Source of the DNA: an uncultured archaeon
Lineage (GTDB): Archaea; Asgardarchaeota; Lokiarchaeia; Sigyniarchaeales; SOKP01
Assembly (NCBI GenBank): GCA_964388035.1
Contig: CAYLZE010000091.1
Location: 1 to 20,827 of the forward strand
Direction of reading: 5' to 3'
Length of the DNA: 20,827 nt
Both the position numbers and the translations under genes were made by a program. The notes beneath the pieces were generated by a model. That model worked only from the letters and a program-made list of their open reading frames with translations. It had not been told where the DNA came from and did no database searches. How positions within the stretch are numbered: position 1 is the stretch's first letter; every line of letters starts with the position of its first letter. Shown one piece after another: positions 7,677 through 19,562 of the stretch.

Positions 7677-8402
7677 TCAAGCTTTTTTTTCTGATTTTTC
7701 CATTACTTTTACGATCTTTTTGATGACTTTATCATGGGTTAATACAAAACCAAACATCGTCCCAAAAGTTTTCAAAATAGATTTATGAAACTCTGGACTC
7801 CAAGATGAACAACAATCCTCAACGATAAAGGTTCCAAAACCATGATCAGAAGCTTCTCTTGCGGTTGCATATACGCAAAAATTTGTTAGGACTCCAGTTA
7901 CAAGAACAGTTTCGACTCCCATATTTTTTAGAAAGTATTCGAGTCTGGTTGAAGTAAAAGTCCCGCTCGTATTCTTCTGAAGAATAAAATCACCATTAAT
8001 TGGCTTTAACTCATCTATTATATCGGAACCATGATAAGATACATGCGGAAATATAACCTCCCCAGTAATTTTTTGTGCCAATTTATTTAATCCCTTTTTA
8101 CCTCGTGATAAATCGCTTCCATCTGGCATAAAACTCGAAAACTTTGTAAATATGATAGGAATTTCAACTTTTCGACAAAAATTGATCAATATTCTTAGGT
8201 TGGGAATAAGTTTTCTTTCCACGTCTTCAATGAAAAAATCTAAAATTCCTGGAGTAATACTATTGGCTGCTTTATATGCACCAAACTCTTTTTTAACTTG
8301 ATATTTTTGCATATCAACGATAATCAACGCAGTTTTCTTAGGTATAATTTTCCCCATTCGACTTTGAGTAATTTTATAGTATTTTTCAATTATTTCCTCC
8401 AT
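7677..8402 (-). CDS. Isochorismatase-family cysteine hydrolase
   Basis: Asp-Lys-Cys triad motifs ALIIVDMQ, LQKNTSGTF, TGVLTNFCVYATAREASDHGF; GAGG upstream of the ATG. Confidence 0.9.
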   Translation of the reverse strand: MEEIIEKYYKITQSRMGKIIPKKTALIIVDMQKYQVKKEFGAYKAANSITPGILDFFIEDVERKLIPNLRILINFCRKVEIPIIFTKFSSFMPDGSDLSRGKKGLNKLAQKITGEVIFPHVSYHGSDIIDELKPINGDFILQKNTSGTFTSTRLEYFLKNMGVETVLVTGVLTNFCVYATAREASDHGFGTFIVEDCCSSWSPEFHKSILKTFGTMFGFVLTHDKVIKKIVKVMEKSEKKA

Positions 8403-8538: not shown

Positions 8539-9627
8539 TCAAAAAAAGAGAAGACTCGATATCCACATTAATATCCCGCACGCTAAAGGATTTAAAATAT
8601 TATCATCGATTTTCAGACTTAATATATCGATTACTAAAAAGGTCAGAGCACCGATTAGAGCGATAAAGCTAATTTTAATTAGGTTAAGGGAAGGGGAAAA
8701 TACTATTAATGCAAGAACACTGATTAAAAAGGATACACCAAAACCAGCCAAATGCCCAATTATGGTCTTGTTATTATTCTTATCTACATGACAATTACCA
8801 AATTTTAGTCCGAAAACTGAGGCTGCTCCATCTCCAATTGTAGCTATTAATACAGTTGCTGCGAAAATTTCGAAAGGGAGAAAAAAAATAGGTTCAAAAG
8901 AGAGGACTAAGGAAGCAGGTCTTAAAAATTCAAAGTTCTCATTAGCTTTCATGGATTTATTAAGTAAATTAGTCACGTTATCGGGAACGAGATAAGTTAG
9001 ATTTCCTTTGTCAAATATGAAAGATAAGCGCAAGTAATCCAATATAGCAAACACCATGATACCAGAAAACCCCACCGTTAAAATTAGAAATTTTGCATAA
9101 TCTATACCACTTATCCCCCATAATTCATCTTGATGTAGCATTCCTTCCCATATTTGTGTTGCAAAAATCCATAAAAAGAGGATCATTAAAACAGGAAAAA
9201 GATGGAGAAGTTTTCTATGAATATCAATTTTTAATGATAACTGTCCCGAATTTCGTTGATCTATTTTCATTTGATTAAATTTGTCGGGATCAATGATTCT
9301 TTCTCGATTTTTCTTGATTTGGGGATTTTTCTTTACAATAAAACTTTCATATAAAAGGATTATTAGGATCATGCCTGGAGTAAGAATGCAAATGATTGTT
9401 GTAGATAATCCTTGAAACCATTTTATTTGGGGGGTATTATCAGGATAAAGGAAGGGATAAGTCATGCCAGCTATTATCCAAAGAACCACGATTATAATTG
9501 AGTTTAGAGAATTGTGATTTTTTGGAAATTTTCTTCTTAGGTGAATGGAATAATATAAATGGAGAACCCCATTTGCCATGAATAATAGAATTACCGGTAA
9601 TACAATGATATTAATGGTCATTTCCAA
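8539..9627 (-). CDS. CTP-dependent polyprenol/diacylglycerol kinase-like membrane protein (dolichol kinase / phytol kinase / Dgk1 family)
   Basis: HRKLLH, GDGAASVFG..FG, KT..G and terminal DDNI..P motifs in a polytopic protein. Start is TTG at 9627 or ATG at 9621. Confidence 0.75.
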   Translation of the reverse strand: MEMTINIIVLPVILLFMANGVLHLYYSIHLRRKFPKNHNSLNSIIIVVLWIIAGMTYPFLYPDNTPQIKWFQGLSTTIICILTPGMILIILLYESFIVKKNPQIKKNRERIIDPDKFNQMKIDQRNSGQLSLKIDIHRKLLHLFPVLMILFLWIFATQIWEGMLHQDELWGISGIDYAKFLILTVGFSGIMVFAILDYLRLSFIFDKGNLTYLVPDNVTNLLNKSMKANENFEFLRPASLVLSFEPIFFLPFEIFAATVLIATIGDGAASVFGLKFGNCHVDKNNNKTIIGHLAGFGVSFLISVLALIVFSPSLNLIKISFIALIGALTFLVIDILSLKIDDNILNPLACGILMWISSLLFF

Positions 9628-9733: not shown

Positions 9734-10747
9734 ATGAAAGCAGCTTTATACGAAGGAAAAAAGCAAATTCGAATCATTGATGTGCCAAAACCAACCCCCG
9801 ATGAAAAAGAGTTGGTGGTAAAAGTGAAATATGCGGGAATATGCGGGTCAGATCTTGAGTTCTATAAAACGGGATTATGGCCAGCTAAAGGTATCCTCGG
9901 GCATGAAATAATGGGAACAATAGCGGAATTAGGTTCCCAGGTAGAAAAATGGAAAATTGGAGATCGAGTCACCATAGATTCTTCATTAAATTGCGGGAAA
10001 TGTTATTATTGTAAAAGAAATCTCACTAATTTGTGCGATAATGCAGAAGCAATAGGATTAGGCAGAGATGGAGGTTTTGCAGAATATATTAAATTACCTT
10101 TACAATGTCTCATTAAACTACCCGATCACATTCCTGATCATTACGGCACGGTTTTTGATCAAATTGGTACGGGTCTTCTGGCTCTTAGGAAAATTGGCTT
10201 CACCGTTGGGAGTACTGCTGTAATATTAGGAATGGGAACGTTGGGCCTCTTTTTATTACAATTACTAAAAGTTTCTGGAGTAAAAAGAGTGGTAGTTATT
10301 GAAAAATGTCCTTATCGTTTAAACGTGGCAAAACAATTCCTGCCCGATTTAGCCTTATCACGGGTTTCTCTTCCAAAAATAAAAAAAGTGGTTGGGAGAA
10401 TAGGTGCGGAATATGTTTTTGAGTGTTCGGGAGTGCCAACATTAGTGAACGCGGCACTTGATATTGCCTGCAAGAATGGAAATGTGGTCCAAGTGGGGTT
10501 ATGGGATAAACCTTTAGAAATAAATCTATTAAGATATGTAATGAATCAAATCAGAATTCAAGGGGTTATAGGATGCGTCCACGACGATCTTCTCCATGCA
10601 ATTGATTTAGTGGGTAGAAAATTGATTAATCCCGAACCAATCATAACAAGAATTATTCCCTTGGATAAAATTGTAGAGGAGGGATTTGAAAATGCCATTG
10701 ATCCAAATACGAAAAATATAAAGATCTTAGTAAATCCCGGATTATAG
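9734..10747 (+). CDS. Zn-dependent medium-chain dehydrogenase (butanediol/sorbitol/threonine dehydrogenase-like)
   Basis: GICGSD, GHE..G, structural Zn site CGKCYYC-x7-C, Rossmann GMGTLG, FECSG. Confidence 0.92.
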   Translation: MKAALYEGKKQIRIIDVPKPTPDEKELVVKVKYAGICGSDLEFYKTGLWPAKGILGHEIMGTIAELGSQVEKWKIGDRVTIDSSLNCGKCYYCKRNLTNLCDNAEAIGLGRDGGFAEYIKLPLQCLIKLPDHIPDHYGTVFDQIGTGLLALRKIGFTVGSTAVILGMGTLGLFLLQLLKVSGVKRVVVIEKCPYRLNVAKQFLPDLALSRVSLPKIKKVVGRIGAEYVFECSGVPTLVNAALDIACKNGNVVQVGLWDKPLEINLLRYVMNQIRIQGVIGCVHDDLLHAIDLVGRKLINPEPIITRIIPLDKIVEEGFENAIDPNTKNIKILVNPGL

Positions 10748-10941
10748 CTGATTAACTTTCTATGAACTAATCTTTACAATATCAATTTGATTTCATGATA
10801 CGAGAAAAGAGTTGATATTTTTAAAGCTCTAAATTTTAAATTTTATTATCAGAATTTTTATCTAAATCAATAACTTTTTTAAAGCAATGAATACTGTCAA
10901 TCGCGTGATATTATTAAATATTGTCTTGAATGTAATCTAAT

Positions 10942-11046
10942 TTAAGAACTCACTAATTCTCGTACAAATTTCTTCAAGTCGTAAAAAATGAAGAGGGTAA
11001 TCAAGGGAATGAATAAATGTGCATGAGACACAGCATAATTAAACAT
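10942..11046 (-). CDS. Putative 34-aa single-pass membrane microprotein (or truncated paralog of 14551..14766)
   Basis: My translation: MFNYAVSHAHLFIPLITLFIFYDLKKFVRELVSS*. The last 20 aa align without gaps to the stop codon of the 71-aa ORF, with 12 identities of which 6 use different synonymous codons. GTGAT lies just before the ATG. Confidence 0.55.
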   Translation of the reverse strand: MFNYAVSHAHLFIPLITLFIFYDLKKFVRELVSS

Positions 11047-11147
11047 TCTATCACATTATTATTTACTTACATGATATTTTAAAAATATTAATATTTTAAG
11101 CTCTAAAAAACCTAAAAAAATATAAATTTATTATTCTTTCGAAAGAT

Positions 11148-13022
11148 ATGAATCAAAAAAGTATTCAAGTCATTCCAAGACCAGAGTACCCCAGACCGAA
11201 TTTTGAGAGAAAAGAGAACTGGATAAATCTCAATGGGGAGTGGGATTTTTCATTTGATGATGATGATATTGGGCTAAAGGAAAAATGGTATAAACGAGAA
11301 AAGAAAGAAAAATTTGATAAAAAAATTGTTGTGCCCTTCTGTTATCAGAGTGAATTAAGCGGGATTGGAGATCAAAGCTTCCATGATACCGTTTGGTACC
11401 GAAAGGAATTTAATATACCTTCAAGATTCGAAAAAAATCGGATATTATTGCATTTGGGAGCAGTTGATTATTCTTGCTTGGTTTTTTTAAATAGTGAACG
11501 GGTAGGAAGCCATGAGGGAGGATATCTAGGTTTTACAATAGATATAACGGATTTTATTGTAAAAAACAATAATATTTTAGTCCTTCGTGTGGAGGATCCC
11601 TGTACGGACTTAGAGATCCCCCGAGGAAAGCAATACTGGTTTGAAAAGCTTACAAGTATATTTTATCCCCGTGTCTCCGGTATTTGGCAAACTGTATGGC
11701 TTGAATTTATCTCATTTAAATTTCATACAAAATGGATTAAAATTACGCCAGATATTGATAAATCTTTAATAATCGCGGAATGTGATGTGTCAGGTAAAGG
11801 GATTCCAGATTTAAAACTATCTGCTAAAGTTTTATTTAAAGATCAAGTCATTGCGAAAGAAGAACTAAACCTTAACTTTTTAGGAGATTTCCAGGCAAAA
11901 CAGGATAGAAAGATTATAAAATCCAAGGGAACACAGATACGCATTCAAAATCCTAGCCCCTTTAAATTTAAGATTAAAATTCCAAAAGATAATCTATATC
12001 TATGGAGTGTTCAATCACCCAATTTATATGATCTCTTGGTCACAATATATCATTCAGGAACTAAAGAAATTTATGACGAAGTTAAGTGCTATTTTGGCAT
12101 GAGAAAAATTTCACTGTCTGACGCGCCTACCGGAACTAATAAGCGAGTATTATTGAACAATAAACCAATTTATCAAAAATTATTTTTAGTACAAGGATAT
12201 TGGCCTGATGGATTATACACTGCTCCCTCTGATGATGCAATAAAACTTGACATTCAATATATAAAAGATTTTGGCTTTAACGGGTTAAGAACTCATCAAA
12301 AAGTCTTTGATCCGAGATTTTTGTATTGGTGTGATAAAATGGGGGTCCTAGTTTGGGGTGAAATAGGAAATGCATTCCAATTCTCTTCTAGAGCACAACT
12401 AAATATTATAAATGAATTTGCAGCAGAAATAAACCGAGATTATAACCATCCTTCCATTATAGCTTGGGCAGTATTAAATGAAGGTTGGGGAATACAAGGA
12501 GCACATCGAAACCCCGAGATGGCAGATTATACGGTTTCATTATATCACTTGATGAAATCCCTTGATCCTACAAGATTAGTTATTGATAATGATGGATGGT
12601 TTCACACGAAAACAGATTTATGTACCATTCATTTATATAACCGATATGAATTATTGGCGAAATCTTTGGAGGAAGAAAAAAAATTCGACTTGCGTTCTGC
12701 ATTTCCCACATATCTCGAACCTTATTCCTATGATAATGAACCCATAATTTATAGCGAGATTGGGGGATTTGGGCTTGAAATTGATGAGGAAAGAGAAGAA
12801 GGAGCTTGGGGATATAGTGTGGAAACGTCTTCTGATAAATTATTTGAAAAAGTAATAAACTTACTGAAACTATTCGATATGAGAAAAGACTGGATTCATG
12901 GCTTTTGCTATACTGAATTATATGATCAGTTTCAAGAAGTAAATGGTCTATTAACAATGCATAGGGAACCAAAATTTGCACCATCACGCCTTAAAGAAGA
13001 ATTAGATAAGTTATTCTATTGA
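11148..13022 (+). CDS. Glycoside hydrolase family 2 (beta-galactosidase/beta-glucuronidase-like)
   Basis: RPEYPRP..R..W.NLNGEWDF, HLGAVDY, H.GGY, RGKQ, SGIWQTVWLE, GFNGLRTHQK, NHPSIIAWAVLNE (acid/base Glu), SEIGG (nucleophile Glu), GFCYTELYD..QE.NGL. No signal peptide visible. Confidence 0.94.
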   Translation: MNQKSIQVIPRPEYPRPNFERKENWINLNGEWDFSFDDDDIGLKEKWYKREKKEKFDKKIVVPFCYQSELSGIGDQSFHDTVWYRKEFNIPSRFEKNRILLHLGAVDYSCLVFLNSERVGSHEGGYLGFTIDITDFIVKNNNILVLRVEDPCTDLEIPRGKQYWFEKLTSIFYPRVSGIWQTVWLEFISFKFHTKWIKITPDIDKSLIIAECDVSGKGIPDLKLSAKVLFKDQVIAKEELNLNFLGDFQAKQDRKIIKSKGTQIRIQNPSPFKFKIKIPKDNLYLWSVQSPNLYDLLVTIYHSGTKEIYDEVKCYFGMRKISLSDAPTGTNKRVLLNNKPIYQKLFLVQGYWPDGLYTAPSDDAIKLDIQYIKDFGFNGLRTHQKVFDPRFLYWCDKMGVLVWGEIGNAFQFSSRAQLNIINEFAAEINRDYNHPSIIAWAVLNEGWGIQGAHRNPEMADYTVSLYHLMKSLDPTRLVIDNDGWFHTKTDLCTIHLYNRYELLAKSLEEEKKFDLRSAFPTYLEPYSYDNEPIIYSEIGGFGLEIDEEREEGAWGYSVETSSDKLFEKVINLLKLFDMRKDWIHGFCYTELYDQFQEVNGLLTMHREPKFAPSRLKEELDKLFY

Positions 13023-13080
13023 AATTTTCTAGAAAGATCTAATCATAATATATTTCATTCTATTTTTATTCTTTAAATTA

Positions 13081-13116
13081 ATGCATTTAAATTACGTCAT
13101 AACGAAGTAAATGCAT
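13081..13116. repeat. Inverted repeat ATGCATTTA-N18-TAAATGCAT between GH2 and MFS
   Basis: Perfect 9-bp arms, with extra inner pairing CGT-CATA-ACG. Confidence 0.5.
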
Positions 13117-13145
13117 CATAAAAAAAAATATTAGGTGGATATAAA

Positions 13146-14480
13146 ATGAAAGAGAATCAAAATTCATCAAATGGAGAAGTTATAAAGGAGAAACGTGACG
13201 TAGTAAAAATCGGACGAAGAAATTTAGGAATCATGGTGATTTTAGGGTTAACTGGCCAAATTGCTTGGGCTGTTGAAAATACCTGGTTTAATACTTTTGT
13301 GTTTGACATGTTAACACCCGATCCCAGACCAATCGCATGGATGGTTGCAGTTAGTGCTGTAGCTGCGACGATTACAACTCTACTCATGGGCTCGCTTAGT
13401 GATCGGACATATACTAAAATGGGAAGGAGAAAACCATATATTCTATTTGGCTATATCTTATGGGGAATAGTTACTGCTATATTCCCATTAGTTGCTTTAA
13501 TTCAAGTAATCGGAATCGCCGTGGTAATGGTGGTTATCGTAGACGCAATAATGACTTTTTTCGGTTCTACAGCAAATGATGCCGCTTATAATGCCTGGAT
13601 AACTGATATTGGCCATCCTACTAATCGAAATCAGATTAACAGCATTAACACCGCTGCGGCTTTAATAGCTAACTTAATTGCTTTAGGTGTTGCGGGAATT
13701 ATTATTGATGCTTTTGGATATTTCACCTTCTTTTATATTTTAGGAGCCATCGTCTCGGTTGGTGGATTAATTGCAGGCTTAATGATTAAGGAGCCAGTAA
13801 TTCCCGAGGAAGAGCGAATGCCAACAAAAAAAGTCTTGAGTGATATCAAAGAATTAATCTCATTTCAAGATGTTAAAGAAAATAAAATATTATATCTTCT
13901 CTTCTTGAACATGGCACTCGGCGGAATCGCGTCGAACGTGTATTTCCCATACCTTTTCATTTACTTAGAACATTATCTGGGCTTCACTAAAACTATAATC
14001 AGTCTAATCGCTTTAGTGTTAATTGGAGGATCTACCATAGTAGTATTACTAATGGGATTTTTAATCGAAAAGACGAACCGCAAAACATTGTTAGTGGCTT
14101 ACACCATTATTGGAACAGTAGCTTTATTCACTTTTGCTTTTGTGGGAGATATTTTGTTTGTTGCTATTATTTACATGTTTTCTTTAGCTTTTTCTCAATT
14201 ATCTGTAGTTGTCCGGAATTCTTGGATGCAAGATAAATATCCTCAAGGAAACATCGGCAAGTTTCAGGGAGTTCGGTTGATCTTCATGGTCGGCATTCCG
14301 ATGGTTATTGGACCTTTTATAGGCTCTTTTGTCATCCAATTATATGGAATTCCGATTGTGATTGAGGAAGAAGCTGGTTTCATTCCCACCCCTCCCGTTA
14401 TAATCATTTCCGCCGTATTAAGTTTAATAGCATTAATACCCTTACTCTTTATAAAGAAATCAGAAGGAAGAATTATCTGA
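13146..14480 (+). CDS. MFS transporter, sugar/glycoside (GPH-like) type
   Basis: GQIAWAVEN, GSLSDRT..KMGRRKPYIL.G, STANDAAYNAWITD; about 12 TM segments; AGGTGG RBS; co-oriented directly behind GH2. Confidence 0.88.
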   Translation: MKENQNSSNGEVIKEKRDVVKIGRRNLGIMVILGLTGQIAWAVENTWFNTFVFDMLTPDPRPIAWMVAVSAVAATITTLLMGSLSDRTYTKMGRRKPYILFGYILWGIVTAIFPLVALIQVIGIAVVMVVIVDAIMTFFGSTANDAAYNAWITDIGHPTNRNQINSINTAAALIANLIALGVAGIIIDAFGYFTFFYILGAIVSVGGLIAGLMIKEPVIPEEERMPTKKVLSDIKELISFQDVKENKILYLLFLNMALGGIASNVYFPYLFIYLEHYLGFTKTIISLIALVLIGGSTIVVLLMGFLIEKTNRKTLLVAYTIIGTVALFTFAFVGDILFVAIIYMFSLAFSQLSVVVRNSWMQDKYPQGNIGKFQGVRLIFMVGIPMVIGPFIGSFVIQLYGIPIVIEEEAGFIPTPPVIIISAVLSLIALIPLLFIKKSEGRII

Positions 14481-14550
14481 AAACAATTAATATTTTTTAA
14501 ATATTCTTTTTCTTTTTAACTAATTTTAGGTGATTTAGACAGGGTTGAAG

Positions 14551-14766
14551 TTAGGAACTTGAGAATTCCTGCAGAACCTTCTTGAGATTATAGAAAATAA
14601 AGATCCCAATCAAAGCCATTATTCCTACAAATTTCCAAGAGAATGAAAAGAAGATGACGGGGTTAAAAAAAAATCCTATTAACTCAATTAATGCCAGATA
14701 AATGCCCGTGATTATCACTCCCAGTAAGACCATATTAATTTTATGGAATTGCGACATTTTTTTCAC
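14551..14766 (-). CDS. Small membrane protein (two hydrophobic segments, amphipathic C-terminal tail), unknown function
   Basis: Sits alone in intergenic space with no overlap of other genes. Two TM-length hydrophobic runs. Protein-level conservation with the ORF at 10942..11046. Start is GTG 14766 or ATG 14757. Confidence 0.68.
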   Translation of the reverse strand: MKKMSQFHKINMVLLGVIITGIYLALIELIGFFFNPVIFFSFSWKFVGIMALIGIFIFYNLKKVLQEFSSS

Positions 14767-15027: not shown

Positions 15028-15681
15028 TTAAGAAATTTCAACGTAGTTGCCCGTAATCATGTAATAGATTTTCTCCGCCATTCTACAAGCATGATCGCCA
15101 CATCTCTCTAAATAGCGCGCAATCATGATATAATTTGAACATTCCGTGATATAAGAGGGTGTTTCCATCATGTAGGTTAAACACTCTCTAAAAATGCTCC
15201 ATCTTAATTTGTCCACTTCATCGTCCCTTTTATTGAAATCTTCCAATTTCTTAAAATCGGCTTTATCAAAAGCTTCCAGTACATCCGCGATCATGTCTTT
15301 AACATGTTCCCAAATATGCTGCAAGTTTATGAGATTTAGCTTGGTTGAAGGTTTCATGGGATAGCGAAGAACGATAACCGCAATATCTCTCCCATAACGC
15401 CCGATTCGATTTAAGGAGGTTGCCATAGTTAGAACACAAGCAATCCTTCTCAAATCGATTGCCATGGGCTGAAATAATGCTATTACTTTAAACGTTTTTT
15501 GTTCAATGCTGTTTTCATAGTCTCTGAGTTGGATTTTCTTCCCATCAATGATTTTGGCTAACTCGATATCCTGGTCATAAAGAACCTTTATGGAATCCCC
15601 CAATATTTGAGAGACGAATGTACCCATTTCTAAAACCAGATTTTTTAGCTCCACAATTTCCTTATGCAATTCTTTAACCAT
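15028..15681 (-). CDS. phoU: Phosphate signalling/uptake regulator PhoU
   Basis: Two PhoU repeats: FQPMAIDLRRI, LNRIGRY, RDDEVD, IARYLERCGDHACRMAEKIYYMITG; directly after pstB. Confidence 0.95.
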   Translation of the reverse strand: MVKELHKEIVELKNLVLEMGTFVSQILGDSIKVLYDQDIELAKIIDGKKIQLRDYENSIEQKTFKVIALFQPMAIDLRRIACVLTMATSLNRIGRYGRDIAVIVLRYPMKPSTKLNLINLQHIWEHVKDMIADVLEAFDKADFKKLEDFNKRDDEVDKLRWSIFRECLTYMMETPSYITECSNYIMIARYLERCGDHACRMAEKIYYMITGNYVEIS

Positions 15682-16661: not shown

Positions 16662-18617
16662 TTACCACCTATATTTTTTCTTGTAATAGTTTCGTATGTA
16701 TATAGCAAGTCCATAAATTATTATTATTAAAAGTAGAAGCACCAATGATGTAGCAGCAGCATTATTTTTTGCTTGATCCCCCGGAACAGTAGTTGCTAAA
16801 AAGAATAAATGTGTGGTCAAAGTTGGGACGGGATCAAAAGGCGATAAGGAACGCGCAATAAATGTGCCCCCAACTAAAAGGAGGGGTGCAGTTTCACCAG
16901 CAACTCTACCCATCCCCAAAATAATTCCGGTGATTACTCCGGGAAGTGCCGCTGGCAGTACGACTCGTGAGATACTTTGCCACTTTGTAGACCCTAACGC
17001 TAAACTTCCTTCTCGAAACGTTTGAGGGATAGATTTCACCGCTTCTTCTGCAGTTTTAATAATTGTCGGGAGGATTATGAGCCCCAGCGTGAGTTGAGCC
17101 GCAAGCAAGGATTTTTGTAAGTGGAAAATTATTAAGAAGAACGAATACCCGAAAAGACCGAATACTATCGAGGGAGTGCCGTTGAGATTTTCGATAGCCG
17201 AGCGTATGATTTTGGTTATTTTGCTATCATTCTTGGCATATTCCGAAAGATATACTCCCGCACATAAGCCGATAGGTACGGCAAACAAGATGGATCCAAA
17301 TATAACAAGAATGGTTCCCATGATGGCCGTAGAAATTCCTCCTTCCCTACCCATCGCCACGGGCGTTTCAATTATAAACGCGAGGGATAAATAGGGCGCT
17401 CCACGGACTACAAGATATCCTATAATTATACCTAATACAGAAAGGACAAAAACAACGGACGCATAGATTAGACCAAATATCACTTTTTGCTTATTCTTTG
17501 AATTCAATTTACCAAGTCCTTTCATGCCCAATAATATAAATATCACGACAATAGCGCTCCAAAAGATTCCAATCCAGGTATAAAATAGCCAAAGTAAGAA
17601 TCCGTATATCATTATATTAACGATAATAGAGCGATATTTCCGAACTTTTTCGGGCAAGGATATTGAAAATCGCCTCTTTTTTTTTTGCCCCGTGAACCTT
17701 TCTTGTATCCTTCCCGTGATGTAATTTGCAGACGTGTTAATGACCAAGGTAATAATAAAGAGGATGGCGCCTAATGCATAAAGGGCTTCAATATGGATGG
17801 GTTCGTACGCTTCAGGCATTTCAGTTGCGATCGTGCCTGTTATAGCCTTCAAGGAAGAAAACATGTTAGTGATCGGATTGGGGATCACAGCCGTATTCCC
17901 GATCACCATGGAAACGACCATTGTTTCTCCAATGGCTCTTCCCAACCCGAGAATAATGGCGGCAGTTATTCCAGAAAGCGCGGCAGGTAAGACGACACCC
18001 TTTATAGTTTGCCATTTAGTAGCACCCATCGCATACGAAGCCTCTCTATATTCTCTGGGTACCGCACTTATGGCGTCTTCCGAGACACTAACGATGGTGG
18101 GAATTGCCATTATTCCTAAAATAAACGAGCCCGAAAACCATGTATTGCCGGATTCCAAATTAAATGCTTGCATGAGAAGAGGATTAAAAAATACGATTCC
18201 AAAAAAGCCAAGTACCACGGAGGGTATTCCAGCGAGTAATTCCACGGCTCCTTTTAAATATTGTTTCATTTTAAAGGGTGCTATTTCTGATATGAAAATC
18301 GCAGTGGCAATTCCTAAGGGAACGGAGATGACGGTAGCTCCTATGGCCACTAAAAACGTTCCAATAATGATGGCAGAAGCACCAAACTTGTTGGTTTTTG
18401 GATACCATATTGTCCCAAAGAAAAAATCTCCGATATTATAGGACAGGAAAAATCCCATTGCTCGACTAAAAAGGAAAATGATGATGAAAAAGAGAATGAT
18501 AATAGCAATACTAGCAGTTATAAATAGGGTGCCTACAATCTTTTTATCCTTAGTCGATTCATTTCGAATATGGATTTCAATGAAATCTCCTTCTTCCTTT
18601 ACTTCTTCAATTGCCAT
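16662..18617 (-). CDS. pstC-pstA: Fused phosphate ABC permease PstC-PstA
   Basis: N-terminal half is PstC-like (ELLAGIPSVVLG, REASYAMGATKWQ, GLGRAIGETM). C-terminal half is PstA-like (GVYLSEY, LNGTPSIVFGLFG, REGSLALGSTKWQ, GRVAGETAPLL). Both are in one 651-aa frame. Confidence 0.94.
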   Translation of the reverse strand: MAIEEVKEEGDFIEIHIRNESTKDKKIVGTLFITASIAIIILFFIIIFLFSRAMGFFLSYNIGDFFFGTIWYPKTNKFGASAIIIGTFLVAIGATVISVPLGIATAIFISEIAPFKMKQYLKGAVELLAGIPSVVLGFFGIVFFNPLLMQAFNLESGNTWFSGSFILGIMAIPTIVSVSEDAISAVPREYREASYAMGATKWQTIKGVVLPAALSGITAAIILGLGRAIGETMVVSMVIGNTAVIPNPITNMFSSLKAITGTIATEMPEAYEPIHIEALYALGAILFIITLVINTSANYITGRIQERFTGQKKKRRFSISLPEKVRKYRSIIVNIMIYGFLLWLFYTWIGIFWSAIVVIFILLGMKGLGKLNSKNKQKVIFGLIYASVVFVLSVLGIIIGYLVVRGAPYLSLAFIIETPVAMGREGGISTAIMGTILVIFGSILFAVPIGLCAGVYLSEYAKNDSKITKIIRSAIENLNGTPSIVFGLFGYSFFLIIFHLQKSLLAAQLTLGLIILPTIIKTAEEAVKSIPQTFREGSLALGSTKWQSISRVVLPAALPGVITGIILGMGRVAGETAPLLLVGGTFIARSLSPFDPVPTLTTHLFFLATTVPGDQAKNNAAATSLVLLLLIIIIYGLAIYIRNYYKKKYRW

Positions 18618-18899: not shown

Positions 18900-19562
18900 T
18901 CAGGAATTAGTCTTAATTAAAACGATGCTATTTATAATAAGTAATCCATAAAACGATAAAAGGAGCATCCACTCGTAGAACTTCACTGATGGAAAACCGA
19001 TAATCGCCAAAACAGCAATTATTGGAACGTCGATTATCATTAATACACCCATAAATTCATTTATGTCTGTAGGAAACTTTACAATAAGTAAACCATAGCT
19101 AATCATTGAAATTGTCCCTCCAATAATTGCAATTATTGAAATAATTGTATGGATAAGATTATTCACATCTTCCGTTATTATTCCGGTACAGAACATCCCC
19201 ATGAAAATCGTGAGCATTCCAATAAAACCAATGCTGCCTAATCTTAATTGTAATGGGGAGATGTCCGATAGTTCCTTGGATGCTAATCTACTTTTTATAT
19301 AGAATGTGATCGGGATAAAAAATGGACTCGAAATCACGTTTCCGATGGTTCTCATGTACGGAAATGGAGTATACTTTATGGAGCCCATATCACTGATATA
19401 ATTATCTATCATGTTATAACCATGAGGACCGAACTGAGCAATGATATAACCGATAATCAACGCCGAGAATGCCACGATAAACGCAATTATAGTTGAGATT
19501 TTAACGATTTTGGGACGAGTAATATATTCATGGATTTTATTAATTAGATTTTCACGTGCCAT
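18900..19562 (-). CDS. DUF998-like / Frag1-DRAM-like six-TM membrane protein
   Basis: GYNMIDNYISDMGS after TM1, G.ITED...IH, FYEW in the last TM; six hydrophobic segments. Confidence 0.68.
   Translation of the reverse strand: MARENLINKIHEYITRPKIVKISTIIAFIVAFSALIIGYIIAQFGPHGYNMIDNYISDMGSIKYTPFPYMRTIGNVISSPFFIPITFYIKSRLASKELSDISPLQLRLGSIGFIGMLTIFMGMFCTGIITEDVNNLIHTIISIIAIIGGTISMISYGLLIVKFPTDINEFMGVLMIIDVPIIAVLAIIGFPSVKFYEWMLLLSFYGLLIINSIVLIKTNS

Follow-up and report, generated by a model that had tools for sequence, protein, structure and literature searches.

Bacteria make small membrane proteins that bind transporters or sensors, among them AcrZ, KdpF, MgtS and SgrT, while in plants and animals truncated paralogs known as microProteins act on their full-length parents. 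Partial gene copies are also left behind at junctions, where integrating DNA displaces the 3′ ends of genes and single-crossover insertions leave one intact and one 5′-truncated copy. There is a published account of illegitimate recombination facilitated by homology (PMC3240628), and small DUF1127 proteins act on PhoR (PMC12501420). Here we examined a complete 20.8-kb contig (C91, 20,827 nucleotides, CAYLZE010000091.1; hereafter the window) from the 5.47-Mb assembly of an uncultured Asgard archaeon (G000; 33% G+C, bin contamination 7%), in which two minus-strand open reading frames (ORFs) of 34 and 71 amino acids (aa) with similar tails bracket a sugar cassette consisting of a GH2 glycoside hydrolase gene and an MFS transporter gene. 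An earlier note on this DNA had taken the two ORFs for paralogous membrane microprotein genes that may modulate the transporter. Our analysis identified the 71-aa ORF as a working gene of a small family found beside phosphate genes; on balance, though with considerable doubt, we read the 34-aa ORF as the final 24 codons of a second copy of that gene, truncated at its 5′ end and by now most likely a non-functional scar.

Like the junction remnants, the window contains an intact copy, inserted DNA and a 5′-truncated copy in direct orientation at a lineage-specific break in synteny, and the fragment is missing the gene's start along with its first two thirds. Unlike them, it has no integrase or transposase, and no inverted or att-like repeats bound the cassette. 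The window proteins share with AcrZ, KdpF, MgtS, SgrT and the DUF1127 proteins their size class, a hairpin or helix in the membrane and the proximity of transport genes, which for the intact gene are those of phosphate uptake. They differ in having no sequence relationship to these proteins and in belonging to an Asgard archaeal lineage; moreover, the conserved neighbour is a convergently transcribed PF01663 enzyme gene rather than a co-transcribed transporter. If functional, the 34-aa ORF would resemble a microProtein in being a truncated paralog that keeps one interaction-prone helix of its parent. The family is new to the libraries, but membrane proteins of this small two-helix type are already known, as are junction scars; the significance of the locus is modest, and it opens no long-standing question.

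Homologous tails and a two-helix protein family

The ORFs under comparison are as follows.

10942..11046, minus strand: short ORF, 34 aa from an ATG start; contains the truncated copy, with residues 1-10 unrelated to the family
10945..11016, minus strand: homologous part of the short ORF, 24 codons covering the end of helix 2 and the tail (profile positions 49-72)
14551..14766, minus strand: small-protein gene, intact, encoding 71 aa if read from GTG and 68 aa if read from the ATG at 14757

Both ORFs were present as the earlier note gave them, and their C-terminal 20 residues aligned without gaps to the stop codon with 12 of 20 identical. The tails differed at 22 of 60 bases, split 7/3/12 by codon position. 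Chance resemblance was assessed with every 20-residue stretch ending at a stop codon, in any frame, using BLOSUM62 scores. The window holds 547 such stretches, which form 149,331 pairs; this pair scored 58 and the runner-up 33. Across the genome (145,601 stop-anchored 20-mers), the two copies were mutual best matches, with next best scores of 32 and 40, and a score of at least 58 was reached by only 19 of 2e8 random genome pairs, which presumably include true repeats. A motif search placed F[IVL]FY[DN]LKK at two sites only in the six-frame translation of the genome, namely the two ORFs. When a family profile built without window sequences was run against 211,613 six-frame pieces, the short ORF ranked joint second (E 0.17; 0.027 once the window sequence was added to the profile).

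As the earlier note had proposed, the resemblance was protein-level and not that of a plain DNA repeat: DNA-level local alignment of the two regions was not significant (44 vs 38.7±6 in dinucleotide shuffles), and the copies were only 63% identical in DNA. Similarity ended at the stop codon, and the 3′ flanks were unrelated (the best direct repeat there, D1, had P 0.43-0.46). The low G+C content of the genome and the lack of a significant DNA alignment could be taken to favour a chance match between AT-rich hydrophobic ORF tails, but the distance between the pair score and the next best scores, in the window as in the genome, and the recovery of the fragment by an independent profile leave this explanation with a negligible probability. 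The homology of the two tails is real and beyond chance. It is also partial, so that of the alignment first reported the homologous tail stands, at 24 codons, whereas the 10 residues before it in the short ORF have no counterpart.

The 71-aa ORF has orthologs in genomes G013 (E 3e-15), G005 (4e-14) and G017 (1.5e-11), and in G001, which belongs to the same genus (1e-3, or 8e-19 in a profile search). A word-based protein search with the 71-aa ORF returned no match, and an exhaustive phmmer search of 1.8e9 representatives yielded only three further metagenome proteins (E 1e-7 to 3e-6). Within the order, just 5 of 154 genomes have clear family members, and a few metagenome contigs carry them as well; named records, reached through alignment A4, place members in Hodarchaeota and Promethearchaeota metagenome-assembled genomes. 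In the family alignment (A2), two hydrophobic helices are accompanied by a loop motif, NPxLFSSFSW, and by a helix-2 end of the form YxLYN[IL]KK..E, with N35, S41, W44, N60 and E67 invariant. The intact ORF carries the corresponding loop NPVIFFSFSW and the end FIFYNLKK..E (FIFYNLKKVLQE). Its hydrophobicity windows of 2.49 and 1.99 predict a hairpin of two transmembrane helices, and an AF2 model gave a helical hairpin (H3-34, H36-40, H44-70) with a pLDDT of 77.5.

Searches of Pfam and NCBIfam gave no consistent above-threshold match for the family, only scattered sub-threshold membrane hits. The top library match of the 71-aa protein, Pfam TctB (PF07331), was rejected at 16.9 bits against a cut-off of 29.1; other family members matched unrelated membrane families, and what the protein has in common with TctB is a short stretch of hydrophobic helices. 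With orthologs found and no library match, the view that the long ORF belongs to a conserved, undescribed small-protein family was borne out. A working gene, the 71-aa ORF belongs to a small, patchily distributed, Hodarchaeota-like Asgard family of two-helix membrane proteins that annotation has missed and that is defined here by its two helices, its phosphate neighbourhood and its taxonomic range.

A second 5′-truncated family piece, comprising loop, helix 2 and tail, was found in genome G004 (C266; L118 1468..1638, minus strand; 23.5 bits). It lies downstream of a histone-fold gene, in frame and past the stop codon of that gene, has a helix that no start codon precedes, and is either a remnant or a read-through extension. 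Separately, a full family member 56% identical to a Hodarchaeota protein was located at the end of a contig labelled Saccharibacteria (CAZJBH010000010.1, locus L108). The rest of this contig carries bacterial-type LeuRS, TatD and MetRS, which suggests that it is chimeric, misbinned or the product of transfer. Ahead of the family gene at L108, another stretch resembling a tail scored -0.9 and was rejected.

The intact gene of the window stands behind a run of phosphate genes.

15028..15681, minus strand: phoU (Pfam PhoU), directly upstream of the intact small gene and on the same strand
beyond phoU, out to 20716: pstB, pstCA and pstS (Pfam ABC_tran, BPD_transp_1, PBP_like_2)

Proximity to phosphate genes is conserved in the family. 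In 7 of the 8 other family loci the member adjoins phosphate genes, namely those for a PF01663 enzyme (type I phosphodiesterase / alkaline-phosphatase superfamily), PhoU, pstB or PiT. The small gene converges on the PF01663 gene at a distance of 15-48 nt in G001, G013 and G017 and at loci L111 and L112, while in G005 one gene lies between them. It follows pstSCAB in G001, in the same order as in the window, follows phoU on the P0003 contig, and adjoins a DUF47-PiT pair in G017. The PF01663 neighbour is missing from the window, and G000 holds only a 39-42% identical paralog on contig C21 and no ortholog. From these neighbourhoods we infer that the small gene may encode a membrane accessory of a phosphate-starvation cluster. 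The pstB-small gene gap on G001:C14 (L023 9677..10109) measures 434 nt without a phoU gene, which is present at that place in the window and on the P0003 contig.

The sugar cassette and the synteny break

The cassette and its surroundings contain the following features.

9734..10747, plus strand: zinc alcohol dehydrogenase (ADH; Pfam ADH_N/ADH_zinc_N), final gene of the left syntenic block
10748..14550, no strand: lineage-specific junction of 3.8 kb, made up of spacer, truncated copy, GH2, MFS and spacer
10883..10945, plus strand: candidate vestige of a PF01663 enzyme C-terminus, converging on the truncated copy with overlapping stop codons; suggestive only
11148..13022, plus strand: GH2 glycoside hydrolase (Pfam Glyco_hydro_2_N/C)
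13146..14480, plus strand: MFS transporter (Pfam MFS_1), separated by 70 nt from the intact small gene, to which it stands tail-to-tail

Comparison with the sister species G001 showed that the PolB-to-ADH block of the window is collinear with contig C58 (ADH 72% identical), which diverges at once after it, with a different gene following ADH. On the other side, collinearity with G001:C14 extends from pstS as far as the small gene, after which that contig continues into the PF01663 gene. The stretch 10748..14550 is the sole non-syntenic one between the two species, with breaks at both borders. An ortholog of GH2 (about 78% identical) lies elsewhere in G001, on C62, where an MFS gene 82% identical to that of the window lies upstream of GH2, so that the order is permuted. 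There the pair sits inside an island of ~10 kb whose flanking genes are adjacent on G000:C28. The order GH2-MFS is found in the window and on metagenome contig L045, and MFS-GH2 in G001 (L036, C62) and G019 (L038, C76). An exact look-up of the MFS for closer relatives gave no match, and the best metagenome relative of the cassette was only 70% identical. The position of the GH2-MFS cassette is lineage-specific.

No family ORF was found within several kb of the GH2 orthologs of nine relatives (0/9), the same genus included, or at 61 loci of metagenome relatives of the MFS (0/61), among them L045 with the same GH2-then-MFS order. The link to sugar transport, and with it a conserved co-occurrence with the transporter gene, did not survive this comparison, since family members instead adjoin phosphate genes. 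The proposal that the two ORFs act together as small membrane proteins on either side of the cassette and modulate it can appeal only to adjacency in this one genome and to the general precedent of small membrane proteins binding transporters. As that adjacency arose in this lineage alone, and no family ORF accompanies the GH2 or MFS relatives compared, we consider the proposal highly improbable; in our favoured account, no two-member system links the fragment to the MFS.

The short ORF itself is truncated where synteny breaks. The family profile aligned only to LFIPLITLFIFYDLKKFVRELVSS of it, a region with no stops in the 24 homologous codons. The helix-2 end and tail motif (FIFYDLKKFVRE) scored 16.1 bits on an independent profile, compared to 18.5 bits for the tail of the intact gene. 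Helix 1 and the loop motif, the best conserved in the family, are missing from the ORF, and neither was detected in any frame upstream of the short copy as far as the GH2 start. An in-frame hydrophobic piece upstream (IYIFLGFLELKILIFL), considered as a remnant of helix 1 and loop, had no profile match. The family-invariant Asn is replaced by Asp. The best 19-residue Kyte-Doolittle mean was 1.53, compared to 1.99 for helix 2 of the parent, and with only 12 consecutive hydrophobic residues and an unfavourable predicted membrane insertion the peptide is a weak transmembrane candidate. A Shine-Dalgarno (SD)-like GTGAT lies at -8..-4 of the ORF, the modal position; such words precede 12.9% of long ORFs vs 4.0% of short ATG ORFs, a likelihood ratio of about 3 (3.25).

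No second copy was found at the family loci of G001, G013, G017, G005 or L108, nor a second clear member in any of the order's 154 genomes, and the short ORF is unique to this genome. Its tail is closer to the long copy of the window (12/20) than is that of the G001 ortholog (8/20, counted from A2), which places the split of the two copies after that of the species. Of the one-helix and two-helix versions of the family that had been proposed, the two-helix form holds for the long ORF, while the one-helix form comes down to a single truncated copy, the short form in G004 having no start codon.

Remnant or living gene

If the short ORF is a scar, it would be what remained of a second copy severed when a rearrangement brought GH2-MFS to this site. 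In this lineage the PF01663 enzyme neighbour would have been lost, with the cassette now in its place, and the second copy of the small gene would have been cut on its 5′ side, with its tail remaining where the insert ends on the far side. The outcome would be the layout seen here: an intact copy, an insert and then a 5′-cut copy, in direct orientation. The insertion may have cut one of two neighbouring copies, or incoming DNA with its own copy of the gene's 3′ end may have displaced the resident one. Because the copies are only 63% identical in DNA, the event was not recent, or each tail came from a different gene copy. This one genome, with no integrase, no repeat and no closer relative, does not show which mechanism acted. 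A tandem-duplication model was also considered and was rejected, since the spacer between ADH and GH2 holds no MFS or GH2 remnants; the spacer upstream of GH2 showed no homology to the matching spacers in G001:C62, G019 or L045.

The same spacer may hold a trace of the lost enzyme. The plus-strand piece at 10883..10945 reads YCQSRDIIKYCLE...NLI, where the enzyme has the conserved end YCKITDIVPTLLK...[SN]LI. On a profile of five PF01663 C-termini it scored 6.0 bits, a level reached by 0.05-0.09% of genome pieces, and its best block (high-scoring segment pair) had P=0.006 in 4000 GC-matched genomic segments. When several weak matches to the PF01663 C-terminus within the spacer were chained, their joint score was not significant (P=0.34). 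We regard the piece as a possible, merely suggestive vestige; if real, it and the short copy would be the leftovers of an ancestral pair in which the enzyme gene converged on the small gene.

The codon pattern of the two tails bears on how long the fragment has been without its gene. On the 20 codons available, the Nei-Gojobori method gave a saturated pS of 0.87 and a pN of 0.24. When 22 changes were scattered at random, at least 12 identical residues remained in 0.15% of trials and a score of at least 58 in 0.005-0.015% of trials, and a simulation comparison favoured constraint on both branches 6-10 fold over one branch being neutral since the split. These values point to protein-level constraint over most of the divergence of the tails, and so suggest that the fragment either belonged to a working gene up to a fairly recent time or is still used. 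They argue against an old, freely drifting relic and are compatible with either a working microprotein or a recently cut fragment. The pattern cannot date the truncation, and it should be interpreted with caution because a tail without a usable start can stay family-like, as the G004 piece does.

Several lines of evidence lead us to favour a remnant. The homology is partial, without helix 1 and the loop motif; the fragment falls within the one stretch that is not syntenic with the genome of the same genus, with a break on either side; and the cassette sits elsewhere in G001, in another gene order. Relatives have no second copy at their family loci and no family ORF near their GH2 or MFS genes, and the conserved partner of the family is the PF01663 enzyme or phosphate genes, with the possible enzyme vestige converging on the fragment. 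The change of the invariant Asn and the weak hydrophobicity point the same way. Truncated relative to its full-length relatives and located at a rearrangement break, the ORF resembles a pseudogene fragment in these two respects. That recognisable scars can persist is indicated by the independent G004 piece, and ongoing loss of the family would fit its rarity. Since the tails diverged under constraint, the fragment would for most of its history have been within a full-length working gene, either a paralog or the copy of a related strain, and would have been cut relatively late. The earlier note's own alternative, in which the cassette lies between copies of an old duplication, comes closer to this account than its microprotein pair does, although the short copy is 5′-truncated and not internally deleted. 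Read as a remnant, what looked like a paralogous microprotein pair around a transporter is better seen as the footprint of a rearrangement, one that would mark the exact place at which the sugar cassette entered a phosphate locus and that calls for caution when microproteins are sought in AT-rich genomes.

Some observations weigh against a scar and are shared by the strongest competing explanation, that the 34-aa ORF is a working microprotein derived from the 3′ end of a two-helix gene, translated from an ATG of its own and retained under selection, for instance because its single helix pairs or competes with the full-length parent. Amino acids are conserved while synonymous sites are saturated, with a Bayes factor of 6-10 against a neutral history from the split onwards; on the family profile the tail does nearly as well as the intact one; the ORF is open, with GTGAT at the modal position before its ATG; and similarity stops exactly at the stop codon, with dissimilar flanks. 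The enzyme vestige, if real, looks far more decayed than the fragment adjoining it, and a late truncation has to assume an earlier full-length second copy or a donor strain. However, the ORF occurs in one genome only, with no evidence of conservation, and it lacks helix 1 and the most conserved motif of the family. Its 12-residue hydrophobic stretch is unlikely to insert, an invariant residue has changed, and it sits at a rearrangement junction, where scars are expected. Late truncation of a full-length copy explains the codon signal, itself carried by 20 codons, equally well, and the G004 remnant also stays family-like. We therefore hold a working microprotein to be a serious but less probable explanation.

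In its fuller form, slightly less probable again, the short ORF would be a living gene born by truncation, in which 24 old codons and 10 new N-terminal ones have come under selection and whose product may pair or compete with its parent in the phosphate-starvation cluster. Expression of the ORF would make it a neat case of gene birth by truncation, and a living gene would offer a prokaryote-side example of the microProtein logic in which a truncated paralog regulates its parent. At the opposite extreme, the fragment would be an old neutral relic that the insertion itself produced in a single step, for instance by a long target duplication, and that has been drifting since. This would be the simplest single event, direct repeats do flank the insert, and the 7/3/12 split is not far from what one neutral and one constrained branch would give. 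It was nevertheless disfavoured 6-10 fold in the simulation comparison, the profile score of the tail is almost undiminished, and protein similarity has been kept while the DNA and the flanks hold no significant similarity; we consider it unlikely.

Other features of the contig

Several further genes differ from their counterparts in related genomes or lack annotation. An isochorismatase-family gene (7677..8402, minus strand) is absent from the otherwise collinear contigs G001:C58 and G013:C80, and represents another small lineage-specific insertion. The next ORF (8539..9627, minus strand) encodes a membrane-like protein of 362 aa that has no Pfam match; G001 and G013 have it in syntenic position, 50-53% conserved, and G017 contains it too. 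Between pstS and pstCA lies a DUF998/Frag1-like membrane ORF (18900..19562, minus strand), and there is no such gene at that place in G001. A pstS N-terminal piece at the end of another contig (G000:C111, 2..190), 81% identical to G001 pstS, is additional to the window pstS and could be a second pstS or a contig-end duplicate. Finally, pstC and pstA are fused into a single 651-aa ORF (16662..18617, minus strand) with two BPD_transp_1 stretches, a fusion that also occurs in G001 (650 aa).

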